A DNA stretch of 64,000 nt, taken from positions 1-64,000 of the forward strand of contig JBDRCC010000006.1 in assembly GCA_043822065.1 (NCBI GenBank), written 5' to 3'. Within the stretch, counting starts at the first letter, position 1, and each line of letters starts with the position of its first letter. Position numbers and translations under genes: made by a program. The notes beneath the pieces are model-generated. The model did not search any database and was not told the origin of the DNA. It was given only the letters and a program-made list of their open reading frames with translations. Shown in pieces: positions 38,677-45,609 of this stretch. Source of the DNA: an archaeon. Its GTDB lineage: Archaea; Undinarchaeota; CAZHTU01; JBDRCC01.

Positions 38677-39714
38677 CTATACTGCTAAGTCTTTGTAGGT
38701 CCTGACGACTTCCTTCAGCTTCGGCGAGTCAAAAACATCCCGTCCAAGGAACGCGTTGGCGGTCGAGGTGTACATCTGCCCTATTATCCTCTTCAGCTCA
38801 GGGTGCAGCTTCGGCGGCTTGGACCTGCAAAGCGCTTTCCAGTCCGTGACCTTTTTTTCCTCGGCAGCGTTCTTTGCCTTCTCGACGTCCGAATACCACG
38901 CAGTCTTCCTGTAGAATTTCCTTGCCACTTCCTTGCTAACTGGAAGCCCGTTGTATGTAAACCTGCACTCGTCCAGGGTGCCAAGGATGTCGACGAGCAT
39001 AAGCTCCCTCATTGGCCCGTAAGCAAGTTCTATCTTTCCATCCTCATTTACGAGGTCTGCCGTCGCCCCAATTTCAGTTATAAGACCGTTTGCCTTCCGC
39101 AGGACGCCCTTGAGTTCGCCAAGCTCGGCATCACTCATGCAAGAAATCTCCTGCGCCTCCTCCCAGGTCATGTACCGATCCCTTACTTCAAGCTTTGTGC
39201 TCACGTCAAATATAGGATTGTCAAGCACCGCGCCAGGCTTTGGATAGTGGTCCAGCCCAAGCGCCTGGTAGGTCGTGTCACCCCGTTCAAGCCTCTTGAA
39301 AACGCTAGAGCCCTCCGGCAGGCGGTTCCTGTAAATTACCTCAAGCGGAATAAGGAAGTTTTCCAGTTTTGGAGTATAAGCTGAATAATCATACCTGCCG
39401 CCCTTGAACGGCGGCCTGATGACGTTAACGATTGACACTTCCATCACGTTCGACGGCTCTTCGAGCTCGTCCAGCCTGTGCGGCTTGCCGTCCTTGCCGA
39501 CCAAGCCCTTGTAATGCGTTTTAATCCCGCGCCGCTCAATCTCCTCAAAACAGAAGGACCCCATTATGCACAGCGCGGCGCCCTTGTTCGGGATGTGGTC
39601 CGGCATCTCGCCCCAGTCGAACACAGAGTACCTGTCCGAGAAAACAAACCTGCCTACGCCCATCTTCCCCTTAGTGGGCTTTTTCAGAATTTGAAGGTCC
39701 TTTACGCTTCCCAT
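38677..39714 (-). CDS. purC: SAICAR synthetase (long archaeal type)
   Basis: MGSVKDL, FSDRYSVFDWG, IPNKG, IPLEVIYRN, STKLE, DGKIE, GTLDECRF, SKE. Confidence 0.92.
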   Translation of the reverse strand: MGSVKDLQILKKPTKGKMGVGRFVFSDRYSVFDWGEMPDHIPNKGAALCIMGSFCFEEIERRGIKTHYKGLVGKDGKPHRLDELEEPSNVMEVSIVNVIRPPFKGGRYDYSAYTPKLENFLIPLEVIYRNRLPEGSSVFKRLERGDTTYQALGLDHYPKPGAVLDNPIFDVSTKLEVRDRYMTWEEAQEISCMSDAELGELKGVLRKANGLITEIGATADLVNEDGKIELAYGPMRELMLVDILGTLDECRFTYNGLPVSKEVARKFYRKTAWYSDVEKAKNAAEEKKVTDWKALCRSKPPKLHPELKRIIGQMYTSTANAFLGRDVFDSPKLKEVVRTYKDLAV

Positions 39715-39764
39715 CGGCTTTCCTAAGAATCAGGGATATAAATAGATTTACTCAAACAAAAAGC

Positions 39765-39802
39765 GAGAGGCGGCAGTTCCCCGAATAAATGGGGCTTACT
39801 AC
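39765..39802. repeat. Array repeat R1 (distal boundary)
   Basis: GAGAGGCGGCAGTTCCCCGAATAAATGGGGCTTACTAC. Confidence 0.9.
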
Positions 39803-39827
39803 ACAAAAATACTTCTTCTGGATAAAA

Positions 39828-40259
39828 CTAGCCGGTGTTCTTTTTCAATTCGTTTTTGATTTTCGGCAGAAATTCTGTTAGGAACTCCAGTGCATCCTGG
39901 CATTCAGCAATGCTCACCGCTTCGGCGCTGTAAATGGCGTTGTTTCTCAACTTTCTTAATCTGTCAAAGGTTTCAGCATCCTGGTTGGGGATCTCTGTGA
40001 ACTCCTTTAGGAATGCCACGAGAACTGTGTGGGAATACGGCTTGTACCCTACGTTAGACATCAACGCCTGAACGGCCTCACGCATGCACTCATAGATGTC
40101 TTCGAAAATGAAGTCAGCGTTTTCTTCTGAAATCTCTTGAGTCTTTATATATTTCAAACGATTACTCGCTTTCGTAATAAGGGAGTTTGCTTCTGCAGGG
40201 TCCGCTGTTTTTCTTACTACTTCCTGTTTGTCCAGATAGTACTCAAATTCCTCTATCAT
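39828..40259 (-). CDS. HEPN domain protein (toxin of MNT-HEPN pair 1)
   Basis: IYECMREAVQAL...SH...RKLRNNAIY; start overlaps the stop of the upstream MNT gene. Confidence 0.85.
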   Translation of the reverse strand: MIEEFEYYLDKQEVVRKTADPAEANSLITKASNRLKYIKTQEISEENADFIFEDIYECMREAVQALMSNVGYKPYSHTVLVAFLKEFTEIPNQDAETFDRLRKLRNNAIYSAEAVSIAECQDALEFLTEFLPKIKNELKKNTG

Positions 40260-40786
40260 CTTAGCGCTCTTAGATATCCGCTCAAAACTACTCCATTCGC
40301 CAGGTCATTTAGGAACTCTGGGTTTGACTTGCTGAGGTCCACGTCATGTATGTTTATTTTCCGTCCTAGAATCCCCTCAAACTTCTTTGCACTAAACTCA
40401 ATGCTCCTTTTTGTCACAATTGCCAAATCAACATCACTCTTTATAGTGTCCTCGCCGCGCGAGTAGGAGCCAAAAAGCACAACTGCCTCTGGCTCATTGT
40501 ACTTTCTTACAATTTCTGAGACAAGTCCAGACCTTTGAAGCATATATAAATTGAAAAACCTCTTGAGGGGGAAAAACTCGCCACCGTCAAAATCTGGATA
40601 ATAGTTCAGTACTGCTTTTCCCCTCTCAGACTTCAGAATTTTCTCAGATTCGAGCTTCTTTAGAATGCTGGAAACAGCAGGAAGTGACAAGCCAGTGAGC
40701 CGGCTTAATTCACGAATATGAAACTTCCCAGTGGGATTATTAAAGAACGGTTTCAATAGCTTAAACCGGTTATCTTTTTCTAACAT
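40256..40786 (-). CDS. HTH-fused minimal nucleotidyltransferase (antitoxin of pair 1)
   Basis: N-terminal wHTH (FHIRELSRLTGLSLPAV) and LFGSYSRGED-x2-SDVDL. Confidence 0.92.
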   Translation of the reverse strand: MLEKDNRFKLLKPFFNNPTGKFHIRELSRLTGLSLPAVSSILKKLESEKILKSERGKAVLNYYPDFDGGEFFPLKRFFNLYMLQRSGLVSEIVRKYNEPEAVVLFGSYSRGEDTIKSDVDLAIVTKRSIEFSAKKFEGILGRKINIHDVDLSKSNPEFLNDLANGVVLSGYLRALR

Positions 40787-40824
40787 CTGTTATAAAATAG
40801 TAACAAGTGTTATATAAACCTAAC
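40769..40824. promoter_or_regulatory. Three GTTA-N8-TAAC palindromes at an exact 20-bp period (putative autoregulatory operators)
   Basis: Copies start at 40769, 40789 and 40809, covering the MNT start codon and TATA box. Confidence 0.7.
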
Positions 40825-40849
40825 GGTTGAAGTAACACGAGCTCCCGTT

Positions 40850-40900
40850 GCATGCGAGAGTAAACGGGGGCAGTTCCCAAATAAATGGGGCTTACTATAC
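40850..40900. repeat. Array repeat R2
   Basis: GCATGCGAGAGTAAACGGGGGCAGTTCCCAAATAAATGGGGCTTACTATAC. Confidence 0.9.
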
Positions 40901-40959
40901 ACTCGCAGAGGGCGATTAACTAACAGTCCAAATCCATTCCTTGTTGTTTTTATTTCACC

Positions 40960-41505
40960 TCAATCGAAGTAGTTTTCAGGTTTTAGTCTTTCTGCGGCAG
41001 CTGTTTGTTCCTTTTTCATTCTTCTGATGTTTTTTCTGCCAATCTCTTTTATACCATCTTTCATTAACTCTTCATAGCCCTCCGTGTCAAGTTCGAGGTA
41101 GCAAAGTCTGCCATCATAGGCAACAATTCTATATCCTAACTTAAGGTGCAGAAAAGTAGAAGCGTCGAAGTCCTCGGTCTCTCTTTTGACTTTGGATACG
41201 GCAGCTATGACTCTGCGAACTCCATATTTCCCATATAGGCATTTTAGAACTTGGAATTCAAAGGACTGACCACAGCGTCTCCCCTTGAATTTTATGTGCA
41301 GCCCATGGATAAATGCAATGTTCCCGTCTAGGGTACACATTATCTCTCCGACTTGATTTTCTTCGTTGTGCTTGCCCTTCTCATAAAACAAAAACTGAAT
41401 AGTTTTTGTAAGGCCCTTTCGACAATAAGGATAGTCTACTGGGAAGGGGCGCTGGTACATAATCAAAAGCATTCTTTCCTTGGAGTTTATTTTTATCTCT
41501 TCCAT
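40960..41505 (-). CDS. Hypothetical protein, possibly GNAT-like
   Basis: 181-aa ORF; the VGEI...IHGLHIKFKGRRCG...LGY pattern weakly resembles GNAT motifs A and B. Confidence 0.55.
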   Translation of the reverse strand: MEEIKINSKERMLLIMYQRPFPVDYPYCRKGLTKTIQFLFYEKGKHNEENQVGEIMCTLDGNIAFIHGLHIKFKGRRCGQSFEFQVLKCLYGKYGVRRVIAAVSKVKRETEDFDASTFLHLKLGYRIVAYDGRLCYLELDTEGYEELMKDGIKEIGRKNIRRMKKEQTAAAERLKPENYFD

Positions 41506-41640
41506 CTTATATCAATGCCCTTCCTGCTCCACATCGCATCATTTTTGAGCATGACTTTTCTGATGCTTTCTCCTTATAAAAATGTAAGCGCCGGGCGCGG
41601 GAGCATAACCAGCAGTTCAAACCACATAATTGATACGAAA

Positions 41641-41667
41641 CAGTAAGCCGGTAAAATGAGCTTACTA
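41641..41667. repeat. Array repeat R3 (degenerate)
   Basis: CAGTAAGCCGGTAAAATGAGCTTACTA; arms AGTAAGC and GCTTACT are perfectly inverted; abuts the stop codon at 41665. Confidence 0.65.
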
Positions 41668-42006
41668 ACCTGCTAACAGCTTTACTACCTCTAGCACAAT
41701 TATTACTGGTAGCAAATAGAAAACAATACTGCCCAAAACAATATGCCCAATCAACGACTTAATCAGGAGTATTCCAGCAATCAGCCCTACTGCTACTGCT
41801 GGCAGTCCGATTGGCGACATTCCGTGGTGGACAACATGGATTACTTGTGCAAGTATTAGCAGCATGCCCAACGCCCACAGCGCTGCTATGTTCGGAGTCG
41901 CACTTGAAATGTGGACCTTGAAAATCAGGCCAGCAAGTATTACCAAAAGAGTTGACGGAAGCACACATACTGGGTCTATATGGCCCCTATTTGACATTTT
42001 AAACAT
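41665..42006 (-). CDS. Small 4-TM His-containing membrane protein, divergent from fur
   Basis: Four hydrophobic segments; GHIDPVC and IHVVHHG. Confidence 0.65.
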   Translation of the reverse strand: MFKMSNRGHIDPVCVLPSTLLVILAGLIFKVHISSATPNIAALWALGMLLILAQVIHVVHHGMSPIGLPAVAVGLIAGILLIKSLIGHIVLGSIVFYLLPVIIVLEVVKLLAG

Positions 42007-42037
42007 AAGTTCAATTTGTCAGATATATTTAAATATG

Positions 42038-42060
42038 TTATTGATTTCCATTATCAATAA
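42038..42060. promoter_or_regulatory. Fur/Zur-box-like palindrome
   Basis: TTATTGAT-TTCCATT-ATCAATAA, a perfect 8-bp inverted repeat ending 4 nt before the fur ATG; the minus strand reads GATAATGGAAATC, similar to Fur boxes. Confidence 0.65.
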
Positions 42061-42064
42061 GCAA

Positions 42065-42433
42065 ATGCCAAGAAAAACTAGGCAGAAAGAGCTCCTCCTG
42101 TCAGAGGTGGAAAAACTTGATGTCATCTTCTCTGCAGATGACCTGTTCAAGCTGGCTAGGGAAAAGGACACAAAGATTGGGATTGCAACGGTATACCGCT
42201 TTCTTAGAAACCTAATGGCAAAGCAGCAGCTCCATTCCTACCTATGCAACCGGCGCATGGTATACTCCAAGGATATGAACAGCCACTGCCACTTTATATG
42301 CCAAAAATGCGGAAAAGTTGCTCACTTCAAAGTTGAGGATATCGGATTTATAAAAGAGAAAATAGACGGCCAGCTCTGCCATTTCCAGATAGATGTGCAC
42401 GGGCTCTGCAGAGGCTGTCTAAAAGCCGAGTAG
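42065..42433 (+). CDS. Fur-family transcriptional regulator
   Basis: FSADDL...IGIATVYRFL, HCHFICQKCG and GLCRGC; ATG 42065 is preferred over the longer ORF. Confidence 0.92.
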   Translation: MPRKTRQKELLLSEVEKLDVIFSADDLFKLAREKDTKIGIATVYRFLRNLMAKQQLHSYLCNRRMVYSKDMNSHCHFICQKCGKVAHFKVEDIGFIKEKIDGQLCHFQIDVHGLCRGCLKAE

Positions 42434-42446
42434 ATATTTTTTGCAT

Positions 42447-42517
42447 GGCAAGCCCCTTAGCATGTGAAAGTAAAATCGAGAGGGGGCAGTCCCCCGACTA
42501 AATGGGGCTTACTATAC
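42447..42517. repeat. Array repeat R4 (longest match to the rnpB 3' flank)
   Basis: GGCAAGCCCC...GAAAGTAAAATCGAGAGGGGGCAGTCCCCCGACTAAATGGGGCTTACTATAC; shares GAAAGTAAAATCGAGAGG with 45292-45309. Confidence 0.92.
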
Positions 42518-42538
42518 AAATCCTTAACGACATGAAGA

Positions 42539-43084
42539 TTATTCTCCAGATTCGGTTAGAAGAGCATCAATTTTATCTACGAAATCATTTGCGTCCTTTA
42601 CCAATAAATCTGCTGCCTCTCTTTCTATCCCCACTTCAGCCGAGTACTGCGCAGTTTCCCTTTCCCTCCTTGCTCGCCGGAGCTTCATGACATACTCTTC
42701 TTCAAGTTTTTTCGCCTCTCTCAGCGTCTCAAGGTGCTTCTTCTCCAGCAGCCCTTTTCTGACATAATAGCACTCGAGGGCCATACTCGTAGCGGCATGA
42801 TTCTTGCTCCAGAAACCCAATTTACCTATCGCCGCTAAAGCGGCATGGTACATGGCGTAGTAGGAACAGACGACAACCCAGTCGTTAGCTTTGAAATCGT
42901 GAAGCTTGAGAATATCCTGCGCATTCTTAGACTTGTCCAGCAATCTTAGAACCTTTGCAACCAACAGATTATGTCTTGCTTTTTCTATGTGGTTTGGAAC
43001 TAACCTCGCAATGTGAAATCCTTTTCCGAACGTACCTTCTTCTTCAAACTTCCTAAGTTTTTTCTTAAGCTCTTCCGCTTTCAT
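42539..43084 (-). CDS. HEPN domain protein (toxin of MNT-HEPN pair 2)
   Basis: WVVVCSYYAMYHAALAA...SKNH...RETAQY; ATG 43084 overlaps the MNT stop. Confidence 0.88.
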   Translation of the reverse strand: MKAEELKKKLRKFEEEGTFGKGFHIARLVPNHIEKARHNLLVAKVLRLLDKSKNAQDILKLHDFKANDWVVVCSYYAMYHAALAAIGKLGFWSKNHAATSMALECYYVRKGLLEKKHLETLREAKKLEEEYVMKLRRARRERETAQYSAEVGIEREAADLLVKDANDFVDKIDALLTESGE

Positions 43085-43704
43085 AACTTCACCTCGAACA
43101 CAATATCCCAAAATCTCTTATGGCCAAAAATAATTATGCCATCTGTCAACGCTTCGGTACCGACAGTGGATGTTTCAGAGGCAAGCATTTTTTTCATACT
43201 TTCCAAATCTGCGACAACAGTCGAAATACTCTTGCCATAGCGCATCTCTATAGTACTTGCAATTCTATCAACCACCCCCTTATCCTTTAACGAGGACGAT
43301 AGAGTGAGCAAATCAATATCACTTCTTTCGGTTCCCCCCCCTCTCGCATATGAGCCAAACAACACAACAGACTGTAGTCGTTCGCCAAGTTCTTCTTTAA
43401 CGCCTGATAAAAATTCGTCAACTATTTTCCCTGCACTTGACTTTCTCCCAAAGAGCTCCTCCCGCTCTTCTTCCGTGAGGAGGGACAGATAAGTCTTAGT
43501 TTTTTCAGTGTCCTTCAAGCCAATTTCATACGCCTTTCCAACTCTATTCTTCCCAAGGACCCCTTCCGCGACCAAAGAGTTAACATGCCGGTGCGTCGGC
43601 TCATATGATAATCCAATTCTTTCCGAAAGTTCGCGGATAGTGTAAGTCGCACCAATGTCCCTTCTGTAAGCTTTCAATACTCTAAAGATGTTTTCTAACT
43701 TCAT
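43081..43704 (-). CDS. HTH-fused minimal nucleotidyltransferase (antitoxin of pair 2)
   Basis: YTIRELSERIGLSYEP wHTH and LFGSYARG...SDIDLL; start moved to ATG 43704. Confidence 0.92.
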   Translation of the reverse strand: MKLENIFRVLKAYRRDIGATYTIRELSERIGLSYEPTHRHVNSLVAEGVLGKNRVGKAYEIGLKDTEKTKTYLSLLTEEEREELFGRKSSAGKIVDEFLSGVKEELGERLQSVVLFGSYARGGGTERSDIDLLTLSSSLKDKGVVDRIASTIEMRYGKSISTVVADLESMKKMLASETSTVGTEALTDGIIIFGHKRFWDIVFEVKL

Positions 43705-43741
43705 ATTGGATTTTCCAATAATGTTATTGGATTTCCAAATA
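43704..43741. promoter_or_regulatory. Two TTGGA-N2/3-TCCAA palindromes (putative operators)
   Basis: TATTGGATTTTCCAATA at 43704-43720 and TATTGGATTTCCAAATA at 43725-43741, between the TATA box and the start codon. Confidence 0.7.
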
Positions 43742-43759
43742 TAAACTTTTCGCTCCATG

Positions 43760-43796
43760 AAATCAAGGGGCAGTTCCCCGAACAAATGGGGCTTAC
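43760..43796. repeat. Array repeat R5
   Basis: AAATCAAGGGGCAGTTCCCCGAACAAATGGGGCTTAC. Confidence 0.9.
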
Positions 43797-43823
43797 CTAA
43801 CAGTCAAAGTCCATCTGCCGGAT

Positions 43824-44272
43824 TTACTCTATCCTGTCAATTAGGTCTGAGATGTCCTGTGCGTGTTTCTTCTTCCCTGCGATAAGGGTATGGAACGTGT
43901 CCCTTTGCAGCTTGCTGGAAGCAAGGCGTGCGCCCTTTTCATACATCTCTGCCGCCTTTACCTCTCCTATCAATCCTTCAGTCAGTTTCGCGACAAGTTT
44001 TGAGGTGGCAGGGGTGGCGCGTTTCACCTTTTTGCCAAAGAACTCACGGGATAATAGTTCCAGTACCTTGACATGCTGCTCACTCTCCGCAATAATCTTT
44101 TCAACGATAGCTCGTGCACTCTTTTTGTTTTCTGCGGGGATGTTCGCCCCCCCCCCAGTTCGGTTAACAGTTTTTTGTAGAAATCTATGGACGATAATTC
44201 CCCCGTTATAGCGACTTTGTTGATTAGTGTGATTAATTCTTTGTCCTGAATTCTCTTTTTGTAGTCCATCAT
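43824..44272 (-). pseudogene. Ferritin/rubrerythrin-like four-helix protein frameshifted at a G10 tract (44147-44156)
   Basis: Frame 1 (MMDYKK...GELSSIDFYKKLLTEL) joins frame 2 (ANIPAENK...IIAESEQH...GEVKAAEMYEK...KKH) across the homopolymer; G8 or G11 would restore the frame. Confidence 0.7.
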
Positions 44273-44346
44273 CTTTAGCCCCCCCTTTTTTTTGGGCATA
44301 TCCCCTTAAGAAAAACAAGTATTTAACACATACGTCTAAACAAACA

Positions 44347-44382
44347 AAGCCCTAAAATTAAGTAAAGATGCGCCGAGGGGGC
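44347..44382. repeat. Array repeat R6 (partial, left part only)
   Basis: AAGCCC...AAGTAAA...GAGGGGGC is colinear with the left part of R4 and is cut at the hydrolase stop codon. Confidence 0.5.
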
Positions 44383-44383
44383 G

Positions 44384-45163
44384 TCATCCTTTTTCACGCA
44401 AGGCTTGATTTAACCAGTCAGAGGCATACTCCGCTATTTCTTGCCAGCCCGGTTCCCCAATGACCCAGTGGGCATGGTTCGCGAATTCCTTGTAAGTTGA
44501 AACAGCCTTATATTTATCTGCAACTTTCCGAACAACTGAAGCAGGAGTGATCCTATCCTCGGCTCCGGCAACAACCAGAACAGGACAAGTAACCTTTGAT
44601 TCATCAACGTTTGCCGCCCCCTTGGAATCAAGAAGCCAGAATCCGATTTCGTATGCTGCCCGCCCTGACTCGTAAACAAATTTGTCAAAAGCCTCCTTTT
44701 GCTCATCGGCCGTGAGTAAATGCATCATCGAATACGCCGCATCATCAAAACCTTGCCGCATTGGCTTTCTCCAAAAGCCCCATTTTGTGAATACGCCCCA
44801 AAAACTTTTTATCACCGATGGCGTTAAGGCTATAATCCCCCGTGGTGATGCGGGAGTTAACAAAACAAGGGCTTTAGCCAATCCCCGGCTCCCAAGGATT
44901 TGTGCGAGAAGCCCGCCCATTGAGTGTCCCATCAGGATAGGGGTCGCGTCAAGCTCTCTAATTTTGTTCTCAAGGTCTTCAGCATAATCCAATATGCTGG
45001 TTGTTCCCAATAGGGGATTGGGGGTTTCACCCGGGCCCATATCATGAAAGCGCAGAGTGGGGTTAATACAATGATAACCATTCTCCTCGAAAAATTTCTT
45101 GTAGTTCTCCCAACACCATCCGCCACCCCACATACCATGAATCATTATTATTGTTTCAGTCAT
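44384..45163 (-). CDS. Alpha/beta hydrolase
   Basis: HGMWGG oxyanion loop, GHSMGG nucleophile elbow, GAEDRIT, HAH; GGAGG Shine-Dalgarno before ATG 45163. Confidence 0.92.
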   Translation of the reverse strand: MTETIIMIHGMWGGGWCWENYKKFFEENGYHCINPTLRFHDMGPGETPNPLLGTTSILDYAEDLENKIRELDATPILMGHSMGGLLAQILGSRGLAKALVLLTPASPRGIIALTPSVIKSFWGVFTKWGFWRKPMRQGFDDAAYSMMHLLTADEQKEAFDKFVYESGRAAYEIGFWLLDSKGAANVDESKVTCPVLVVAGAEDRITPASVVRKVADKYKAVSTYKEFANHAHWVIGEPGWQEIAEYASDWLNQALREKG

Positions 45164-45303
45164 GATTTGCCTCCGTTCGTTCAGCAATTTTGCATAATGC
45201 CCTATGCAGATATTTTTATATGCAATTGTTTATATAAAATATATTTGGTCACTACTGAACCTTTTCCTACGGTAAGCCCCACCTATTGTGCGAAAGTAAA
45301 ATC

Positions 45304-45609
45304 GAGAGGAGGTAGTAAGCCCCATTCTGTTCAGGCCGCGGAAAACTTCACGCAAGGCCCTCTACGGCATTAGACTGAGCGTCTTAGACTTGCACCCGCC
45401 GGGGCCATGGCCGTTTCATTCCCATCCGCCGCCTCAGGTTTTCCATCATCACAAGGCGGAAAGGATATCGTTTCTGATCCTGGCCCTGCCAGTCTCCCGG
45501 CAGCGCTTGCGCGCCAGTTTCGGCAGGATAGATTCCAGCCGAGGTGTGGGGACTTTCCTCGCCCCTTCGCGTTTGAATGCTTAGGGACGGCGGCCGTTCT
45601 CCCCCTCTC
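45304..45609 (-). ncRNA. rnpB: RNase P RNA (archaeal)
   Basis: Minus strand shows CR-I GAGGAAAGUCCCCAC, CR-II AGAAAC, CR-III UGAAAC, GGUGCAAG, CR-IV AGUCUAAU and CR-V AACAGAAUGGGGCUUA; P1 GAGAGGGGG/CCUCCUCUC; K-turn-like UGAUGA...CUGAG in P12. Confidence 0.95.

Follow-up and report, generated by a model that had tools for sequence, protein, structure and literature searches.

Genomic islands at tRNA and tmRNA genes use the 3´ end of a stable structural RNA gene as target and leave the gene itself intact, and archaeal 'gene capture' at tRNA genes is a related island system. According to the available text of the Islander paper (PMC4383910), a regenerated target together with a displaced fragment is the mark of such islands, and the available part of the tycheposon preprint (bioRxiv 10.1101/2020.12.28.424599) describes repeated integrations in Prochlorococcus, in which later arrivals push earlier ones inward. 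Here we describe an array of small gene modules beside rnpB, which encodes the RNA of RNase P, in a 64,000-nucleotide stretch of archaeal DNA (hereafter the window; positions 1 to 64,000 of contig JBDRCC010000006.1, assembly GCA_043822065.1, phylum Undinarchaeota). The modules fill the interval between rnpB and the housekeeping gene purC and are separated by repeats copied from the 3´ end of rnpB. Serial site-specific insertion at the rnpB 3´ end is the most likely origin of this array, to which we assign a probability of a little under one half.

As in the tRNA and tmRNA islands, the 3´ end of a stable structural RNA gene appears to be the target and the gene stays intact. Copies of the target 3´ end mark the boundaries, the cargo is AT-rich and foreign, and the whole is polar and additive with the RNA gene adjoining it, as far as those islands are described in the available text of the two sources. 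The array differs from them in that the target is rnpB and not a tRNA or tmRNA gene, in that its modules measure 0.6–1.3 kb and contain no integrase or fragment of one, and in that its repeat units also hold an inverted copy of the target.

The assembly is a draft archaeal genome of 1,026,769 bases (1.03 Mb) in 22 contigs that is 82% complete, and the window lies on an 80.6-kb contig. rnpB, a full-length archaeal RNase P RNA gene (Rfam; 45304–45609, minus strand), is the sole RNA gene in the window, in which no tRNA gene was found. The gap between rnpB and purC is a 5.5-kb AT-rich stretch with a GC content of 0.42–0.47 versus ~0.53: the five 1-kb bins of 40001–45000 lie at 0.419–0.466, whereas every other bin lies at 0.49–0.60. 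The GC3 is 0.43–0.57 in nine module genes versus 0.68–0.74 in purC, RuBisCO and kef. The modules are 598–1284 bp long between repeat cores and carry one or two genes each, and AT-rich, TATA-like leaders precede the hydrolase gene, both MNT genes and the fur/membrane protein pair. The original prediction, made from the letters of this DNA, had described a gene order anchored on rnpB and reaching to purC, a region richer in AT than its flanks, and the co-orientation with rnpB of all array genes except fur, which is on the plus strand; all of this agrees with Rfam (RF00373), Pfam, the open reading frame list and the binned GC values.

A repeat search returned a family with members at 39754, 40876, 42467 and 43751 and a weaker member at 41652. 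The junction repeats are referred to as R1 to R6, counted from purC, and the resident rnpB 3´ end with its trailer as R0. All are read on the minus strand, as is rnpB, and the conserved 3´ segment of rnpB is denoted CR-V.

45304 to 45609, minus strand: rnpB, RF00373, 131.1 bits against a cut-off of 84, model positions 1–288
45262 to 45323, minus strand: R0, the rnpB 3´ end GGGGCTTACTACCTCCTCTC and a trailer of 45 nt, in which a T-tract and another GGGGCTTAC are present
44347 to 44382, minus strand: R6, a doubtful partial repeat right behind the hydrolase stop codon
43760 to 43814, minus strand: R5, an inverted CR-V copy and a short core, with an extra 18 nt (..GACTGTTAG) in common with R2
42440 to 42528, minus strand: R4, the most complete unit
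41641 to 41668, minus strand: R3, degenerate, with the palindrome AGTAAGC..GCTTACT, which is cleaner and keeps the CTT
40840 to 40937, minus strand: R2, an inverted arm, a core with a 5–6-nt indel, a trailer-like arm and an upstream extension in common with R5
39754 to 39807, minus strand: R1, an inverted arm and a direct rnpB 3´ end; the T-rich trailer behind them, CTTTTTGTTT, is unique

Alignment scores were compared with those of shuffled sequences, with 500 shuffles for similarity to R4 and for the direct rnpB copy and 300 for the inverted copy. Against the R4 intergenic region, R1 scores 80, R2 scores 70, R5 scores 51 and the rnpB 3´ end scores 54, and none of the 500 shuffles reaches any of these values. 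R3 is no better than chance in its overall similarity to R4 (269 of 500 shuffles), as is a control intergenic region, and it is supported by its inverted rnpB match and its position. R6 is not significant, either against R4 (25 of 500) or against the direct rnpB copy (88 of 500), and the array therefore comprises five or six modules.

The element common to R1–R5 is an inverted 14–24-nt copy of CR-V (rnpB ..CCTGAACAGAATGGGGCTTACTAC). When the last 42 nt of rnpB are used, none of 300 shuffles reaches the inverted match of R1, R2, R4 or R5, and one of 300 reaches that of R3. The match in R1 and R5 spans 21–24 nt, CCYGAAYA-AATGGGGCTTAC(TAC), which indicates that the 'spacer' of the unit is also rnpB sequence, inverted. 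For the direct copy, which comprises the rnpB 3´ end and trailer, significance is reached in R4 and R1 only (no shuffle of 500 in either case); R2 (16 of 500) and R3 (28 of 500) are marginal, and R5 (182 of 500) falls short of it. On the rnpB strand, a unit of ~50–85 bp is thus composed of the inverted CR-V copy TAGTAAGCCCC, an 8-nt spacer taken from the rnpB bases immediately upstream of CR-V, the final ~20 nt of rnpB copied in direct orientation, GGGG(CTT)ACTRCCNCCTCTCG, which is the 3´ strand of helices P2 and P1, and a T-rich trailer. R4 displays these parts in the order TAGTAAGCCCC, ATTTAGTC, GGGG-ACTGCCCCCTCTCG without the CTT, the trailer ATTTTACTTTCACATGCTAA, and GGGGCTTGCC. The CTT is missing as a common 3-nt gap in four of the five units and is kept in R3.

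The claim of a related repeat at every junction, which would delimit six modules, therefore stands for R1, R2, R4 and R5, is weakened to a degenerate copy at R3 and is doubtful at R6. Likewise, the statement that the repeats copy the rnpB 3´ end and its trailer is correct for R4, including the specific resemblance reported between the two (score 54), and for R1; it is marginal for R2 and R3 and lacks significance for R5 and R6. The original prediction had missed the inverted CR-V copy that the units have in common.

On the plus strand, R4 (42458–42524) gives a weak RNase_MRP match across the whole model (16.5 bits, E 0.12), beyond which the Rfam scan of the array returned nothing relevant. A shrunken rnpB on the plus strand was rejected as an explanation of the unit, because the homology of the R4, R2 and R0 trailers fixes the left part in direct orientation; the RNase_MRP resemblance stems from P1/P4 complementarity and does not mark a gene. 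The rnpB of this lineage also has a 28-nt insertion relative to the Rfam consensus just ahead of the CR-V segment (45330–45358, minus strand).

The repeats are confined to this locus. The five occurrences of the 12-mer AATGGGGCTTAC in the 1,026,769-base assembly comprise four within the repeats and a single one within rnpB. BLAST with the 89-nt R4 unit against its own genome finds only R1 (E 5.8e-13), R2 (2.8e-7), R5 (2.2e-5) and R0 (2.7e-4), and nothing better than E 0.085 is found in 16 other genomes of the phylum. Short intergenic repeats are present in just one of the 17 low-GC islands of the genome, which is the rnpB array, and all copies fall within 5.6 kb. It had been set beforehand that the repeats should be tied to rnpB and not scattered, and the genome-wide 12-mer, BLAST and low-GC-island scans agree in placing them there. 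Repetitive extragenic palindromes (REP), the bacterial interspersed mosaic elements (BIME) built from them, and miniature inverted-repeat transposable elements (MITE) are similar to the array repeats as short imperfect palindromes at gene 3´ ends. The array repeats differ in occupying a single locus, and no Y1 (RAYT-type) transposase was found in the assembly. Because the repeats are confined to the locus, they are not of the REP or MITE kind, and genome-wide dispersal of that kind is ruled out.

The array is polar. The inverted arm is missing from R0, both arms are present at the internal junctions, and the trailer in which R1 ends, beside purC, is unique. R0 is homologous to the downstream half of R4, and its trailer arm is common with R4 and, more weakly, with R2. 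The R1 trailer departs from the common one after CCTCTCG (CTTTTTGTTTGAG..) and leads into the TATA-like box of purC: the next 10 aligned nucleotides hold four mismatches, no alignment follows, and the distal GGGGCTTRC motif is absent. R1 ends 40 nt ahead of the purC start codon, at the promoter boundary where it had been placed at the outset. An intact rnpB and displaced direct fragments of its 3´ end, significant in R4 and in R1 at the distal end, correspond to the regenerated target and displaced fragment of the tRNA and tmRNA islands.

Serial insertion is the likeliest explanation because the target is intact, foreign modules lie between target-derived repeats, and the far end consists of a target fragment followed by unique sequence. 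Serial insertion at rnpB would also account for the missing inverted arm of R0, the two-armed internal junctions and the unique trailer of R1. We infer the recombination itself, the crossover position and the order of arrival from this arrangement. A site-specific recombinase encoded outside the array would have exchanged strands within the direct part of the unit, 3´ of the CTT position. Four units lack the CTT that the resident rnpB bears, so any crossover would have occurred 3´ of CTT, in ACTRCCNCCTCTCG. With each insertion, rnpB would have acquired a fresh 3´ end and terminator, and the one that it had before would have been displaced downstream. The unique trailer of R1 is presumably the original rnpB trailer, abutting the purC promoter, and the hairpin and T-tract probably also end transcription of each module.

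Several observations weigh against this explanation. The direct rnpB copy that is expected of a displaced fragment is significant in two of the six junctions. The best-conserved element of the unit is inverted, and classical attL and attR products need no such element. The palindrome spacer is the reverse complement of the rnpB spacer and therefore is not an overlap region of the lambda type, and the copies differ at core positions, so that no recent event has taken place. No integrase or integrase remnant is present in the five or six modules, which measure just 0.6–1.3 kb: all open reading frames of the array are accounted for, and none matches PF00589, PF16795 or PF00239. No serine recombinase, SSV-type integrase, Y1 transposase or IS110 transposase was found in the assembly, an absence that is not proven at 82% completeness. 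None of the relatives compared, which are two other genomes in the order and 16 others in the phylum, has the array, its repeats or an empty rnpB–purC site. Among 31 rnpB loci (12 from the phylum and 19 from other archaea), no convincing copy of the rnpB 3´ end is seen in the available downstream DNA, and there is no independent sign that rnpB is used as a target beyond this locus. No alternative joint or circular junction is seen among the short contigs of the one public sequencing run that matches the window. The proposal of capture at rnpB is accordingly supported by the confined repeats, the unrelated foreign modules and the polarity of the array, whereas no variant array, empty site or circle has been seen.

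The comparison with relatives gives little context for the locus. One of the two same-order genomes has no rnpB match, and the other (G002) has rnpB among different genes on a 6.4-kb contig. purC, kef and RuBisCO are near rnpB in none of the compared archaeal rnpB loci. Scans with exact patterns of the unit gave no match in viral contigs (three patterns), metagenome contigs or genome contigs, collections that may omit the genome of the window or very near ones. Two metagenome contigs match a pattern built on this lineage's rnpB 3´ end; one resembles G002 and has no array, and the other is unrelated. The public run contains short contigs that are identical to the window, including 43751–43901 (across R5) and 44027–44238, with a word share of 0.05. 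In a further phylum genome (G004), a second, weaker RNase P RNA match (C34:3118-3398, 62 bits, below the cut-off) is present in addition to a 129.5-bit copy, and it could be a divergent second gene or contamination.

Full-text searching of a limited library found no paper in which rnpB is described as an attachment site. Neither 'RNase P' nor 'rnpB' is mentioned in a review of archaeal tyrosine recombinases (PMC8371274), or in the available text of the Islander paper and the tycheposon preprint. We rate the array as a new form of island building at RNA genes whose mobility is unproven, a view that rests on one draft genome. We consider it more probable that the system is a fossil, or else is moved in trans by an element that the assembly lacks. 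Small symbiont-like archaeal genomes are considered poor in routes of gene gain, and a hotspot behind an essential, conserved RNA gene would be one such route; at least one of the stacked genes appears to be of bacterial origin. Should rnpB be a true attachment site, a class of targets escapes island finders that are limited to tRNA and tmRNA genes. The rnpB-mimicking palindrome also offers a short, concrete substrate for asking which recombinase, if any, moves integrase-free archaeal cassettes.

The alternative that survives best, although it is unlikely, is that the repeats are mainly cis-acting RNA or transcription elements, in which the rnpB terminator was copied by small duplications or gene conversion and the foreign genes came in independently, for example by illegitimate recombination. 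Every unit follows a minus-strand gene, 14–58 nt past its stop codon, and precedes the next leader, and the template would be the terminator of rnpB itself. The outer parts of R4 pair in a 16-bp stem (−33.7 kcal/mol) that is far more stable than in shuffled sequences (z −3.77, 0 of 200 shuffles), but R1, R2, R3 and R5 fold no better than shuffles (z −1.69 to −0.01). Similarly, T-tracts stand right behind the palindrome in R1 and R4 and are poor in R2, R3 and R5. A terminator origin does not explain why five foreign modules lie exactly between such elements at one locus when the 16 other low-GC islands have none, nor does it explain the polarity from R0 to R1.

A second alternative, which we consider quite improbable, is that rnpB serves as the docking site of a so far undescribed gene-capture system, an independently evolved functional analogue of the integron that would be able to import bacterial genes. 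Integrase-free cassettes would be taken up, cut out and rearranged at rnpB through a recombinase that acts in trans and is either XerA or the enzyme of an unassembled plasmid, virus or other unseen mobile element. The cassettes would carry a palindromic mimic of the universally conserved CR-V/P4 segment of RNase P RNA, and this imperfect palindrome, which has a 3-nt bulge, might serve as a single-stranded hairpin in folded form, like attC or the attP of CTX phage. Module lengths of 598–1284 bp and the co-orientation of the genes fit such a system. Each unit contains one inverted and one direct copy of the rnpB box GGGGCTTACT, comparable to R´´ and R´ versus attI, the same 3-nt asymmetry recurs in four of the five units, and XerA is present in the assembly. 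According to the available text of PMC9668308, the functions most often found in archaeal cassettes include toxin–antitoxin-like pairs and acetyltransferases, and intI is absent from most archaeal integrons. To the extent that the same text describes integrons and clusters of attC sites lacking integron-integrases (CALINs), the array is like them in its short modules, which are co-oriented, hold one or two genes and have an imperfect palindromic site behind them, in its toxin–antitoxin-like and acetyltransferase-like cargo, in having no integrase beside it and in the import of at least one gene across domains.

However, the array is not an integron by definition. It has no intI, although a CALIN does not need one. 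The unit consensus has neither R´´ nor R´ (RYYYAAC/GTTRRRY) on either strand and no conserved GTT/AAC, the GTTAGGT of R5 being a chance occurrence. The site originates in an RNA gene of the host and, in most copies, is far shorter than that of integrons, the anchor is rnpB and not attI, and each module appears to have its own AT-rich, TATA-like leader. The hairpin is just 7 bp and is the predicted fold of R1 and R3 but not of R4 or R5. The units have diverged, and no circle or rearranged array has been seen. The missing integron-defining features together with the weak hairpin leave an active integron-like platform as a minority option; the original prediction of such a platform is not upheld, given that intI and the R´´/R´ boxes are missing and that the modules apparently have promoter-like leaders of their own.

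The listing of recombinases does not favour the platform either. The only tyrosine recombinase in the assembly is XerA (C10:3483-4370; PF00589; NF040815, 258.9 bits against a cut-off of 220), which is encoded outside the array and scores below the cut-offs for integron integrases. The assembly was scanned for 11-6-11 inverted repeats around ATAA-N6-TTAT with at most three arm mismatches. Four sites were found, of which the only one with a single mismatch is AGGGCGCATAA-TACTGA-TTATGCGCCCA (C11:11775-11802), outside the window in a low-GC stretch of the same contig (C11 10251–12750). We take this site to resemble bacterial dif. It also fits the archaeal dif architecture as given in the available text of PMC2958812. 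By its sequence, it is the likely target of XerA and a far better candidate for that role than the rnpB-derived units, which it does not resemble.

Elements that depend on Xer recombinases, such as CTX and TLC at dif and the pdif modules of Acinetobacter, provide a further comparison; the CTX site is hairpin-forming. The array is similar to them in its integrase-free modules, which could be moved by a host recombinase in trans, in tandem stacking at one chromosomal site and in the presence of a host XerA. It differs in that its units have no 11-6-11 dif architecture and no ATAA-N6-TTAT core, and in that the likely dif site of the genome is on another contig. In contrast to pdif modules, the units are in direct and not alternating orientation.

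Exchange of cassettes by homologous recombination, with the 50–85-bp units as portable homology through which modules from relatives are swapped in without a site-specific enzyme, is very doubtful. The units flank every module in direct orientation, and no dedicated recombinase was found. However, their identity to R4 is 77–90% over short lengths with longest exact runs of ~14–26 nt, which makes a poor substrate, and neither the origin of the units nor the copying of rnpB is explained. An assembly or binning artefact, in which a chimeric contig joins foreign fragments at a repeated sequence, is hardly credible: the genome is a draft of 22 contigs at 82% completeness and the region differs from its flanks in composition, but the units are shorter than a read, contigs of the public run (which may be the source sample) match 43751–43901 and 44027–44238 without difference, and housekeeping genes stand on both sides of the array within one 80.6-kb contig.

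The genes of the modules and the boundary gene are as follows, from rnpB towards purC; MNT genes of the two pairs also encode a winged helix-turn-helix (wHTH) domain.

44384 to 45163, minus strand: alpha/beta hydrolase of bacterial type, Pfam Abhydrolase_6, E 4e-20
43824 to 44318, minus strand: ferritin-like gene, weak NCBIfam EncB_fam match, E 0.0016, below the cut-off
43081 to 43710 and 42539 to 43084, minus strand: wHTH-MNT gene and HEPN gene of pair A, Pfam
42065 to 42433, plus strand: Fur-family regulator, Pfam FUR, E 8e-17
41665 to 42006, minus strand: membrane protein of 113 aa, divergent from fur, from the open reading frame list
40960 to 41505, minus strand: orf181, an orphan by sequence with a GNAT-like predicted fold
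40256 to 40786 and 39828 to 40259, minus strand: wHTH-MNT gene and HEPN gene of pair B, Pfam
38677 to 39714, minus strand: purC, Pfam SAICAR_synt, GC3 0.68, the housekeeping boundary of the array, followed by a RuBisCO-like gene

Judged by sequence, the cargo is foreign and unrelated from one module to another. The hydrolase DNA is 79–81% identical over 767–791 nt to loci in three bacterial metagenome-assembled genomes (MAGs; Anaerolineae, Deltaproteobacteria and Dehalococcoidales), and the homology begins ~15 nt upstream of the start codon and runs to the stop codon or to a point just short of it. All 19 relatives of the gene in the genome contig collection are bacterial by record title. The protein has 2899 homologues, of which the best, source-named Poribacteria bacterium, is 84% identical, and others at 73–78% are source-named Deltaproteobacteria, Chloroflexota, Bacteroidota and one Heimdallarchaeota MAG. 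The hydrolase gene looks like a widely exchanged gene that was transferred across domains into this archaeon.

The two MNT-HEPN pairs are the only such pairs of the genome, and both of its Pfam HEPN matches are inside the array. The MNT proteins of pairs A and B are 26% identical, and their HEPN proteins have no blastp match to each other. The repeats are better conserved than this cargo, and segmental duplication of a toxin–antitoxin module is therefore ruled out. The best non-self homologue of the pair A MNT protein is 36% identical. A near-perfect tandem and inverted repeat, TTGGAAATCCAATAACATTATTGGAAAATCCAA, lies at 43697–43748 just upstream of the pair A wHTH-MNT gene and is probably the autoregulatory operator of the pair.

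Two gene assignments of the original prediction hold in part. The 'ferritin-like' label agrees with the weak NCBIfam match and with an intact paralogue at C21:3552-3992, to which both frames of the gene are related at 40–41% identity; the gene is frameshifted, being split in two by a C10 run at 44147–44156. The short contig of the public run that covers 44027–44238 has the same length of this run as the window. The 'GNAT-like' label of orf181 has no support from sequence, as no homologue is found among 5.8 billion proteins, and a single-sequence AlphaFold2 model is too poor to use (predicted local distance difference test score of 34.6). In the ESM Atlas model, all ten rows are GNAT acetyltransferases with TM values of 0.57–0.63, which provides a lead only towards a GNAT-like fold.

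Beyond the window on the same contig (C6:75300-78600), three copies of a long, GC-rich, coding-like repeat are spaced at 1.0 and 2.1 kb, with up to 40/40 identity in 40-nt samples and a low-GC stretch adjoining them; these copies are probably paralogous genes.

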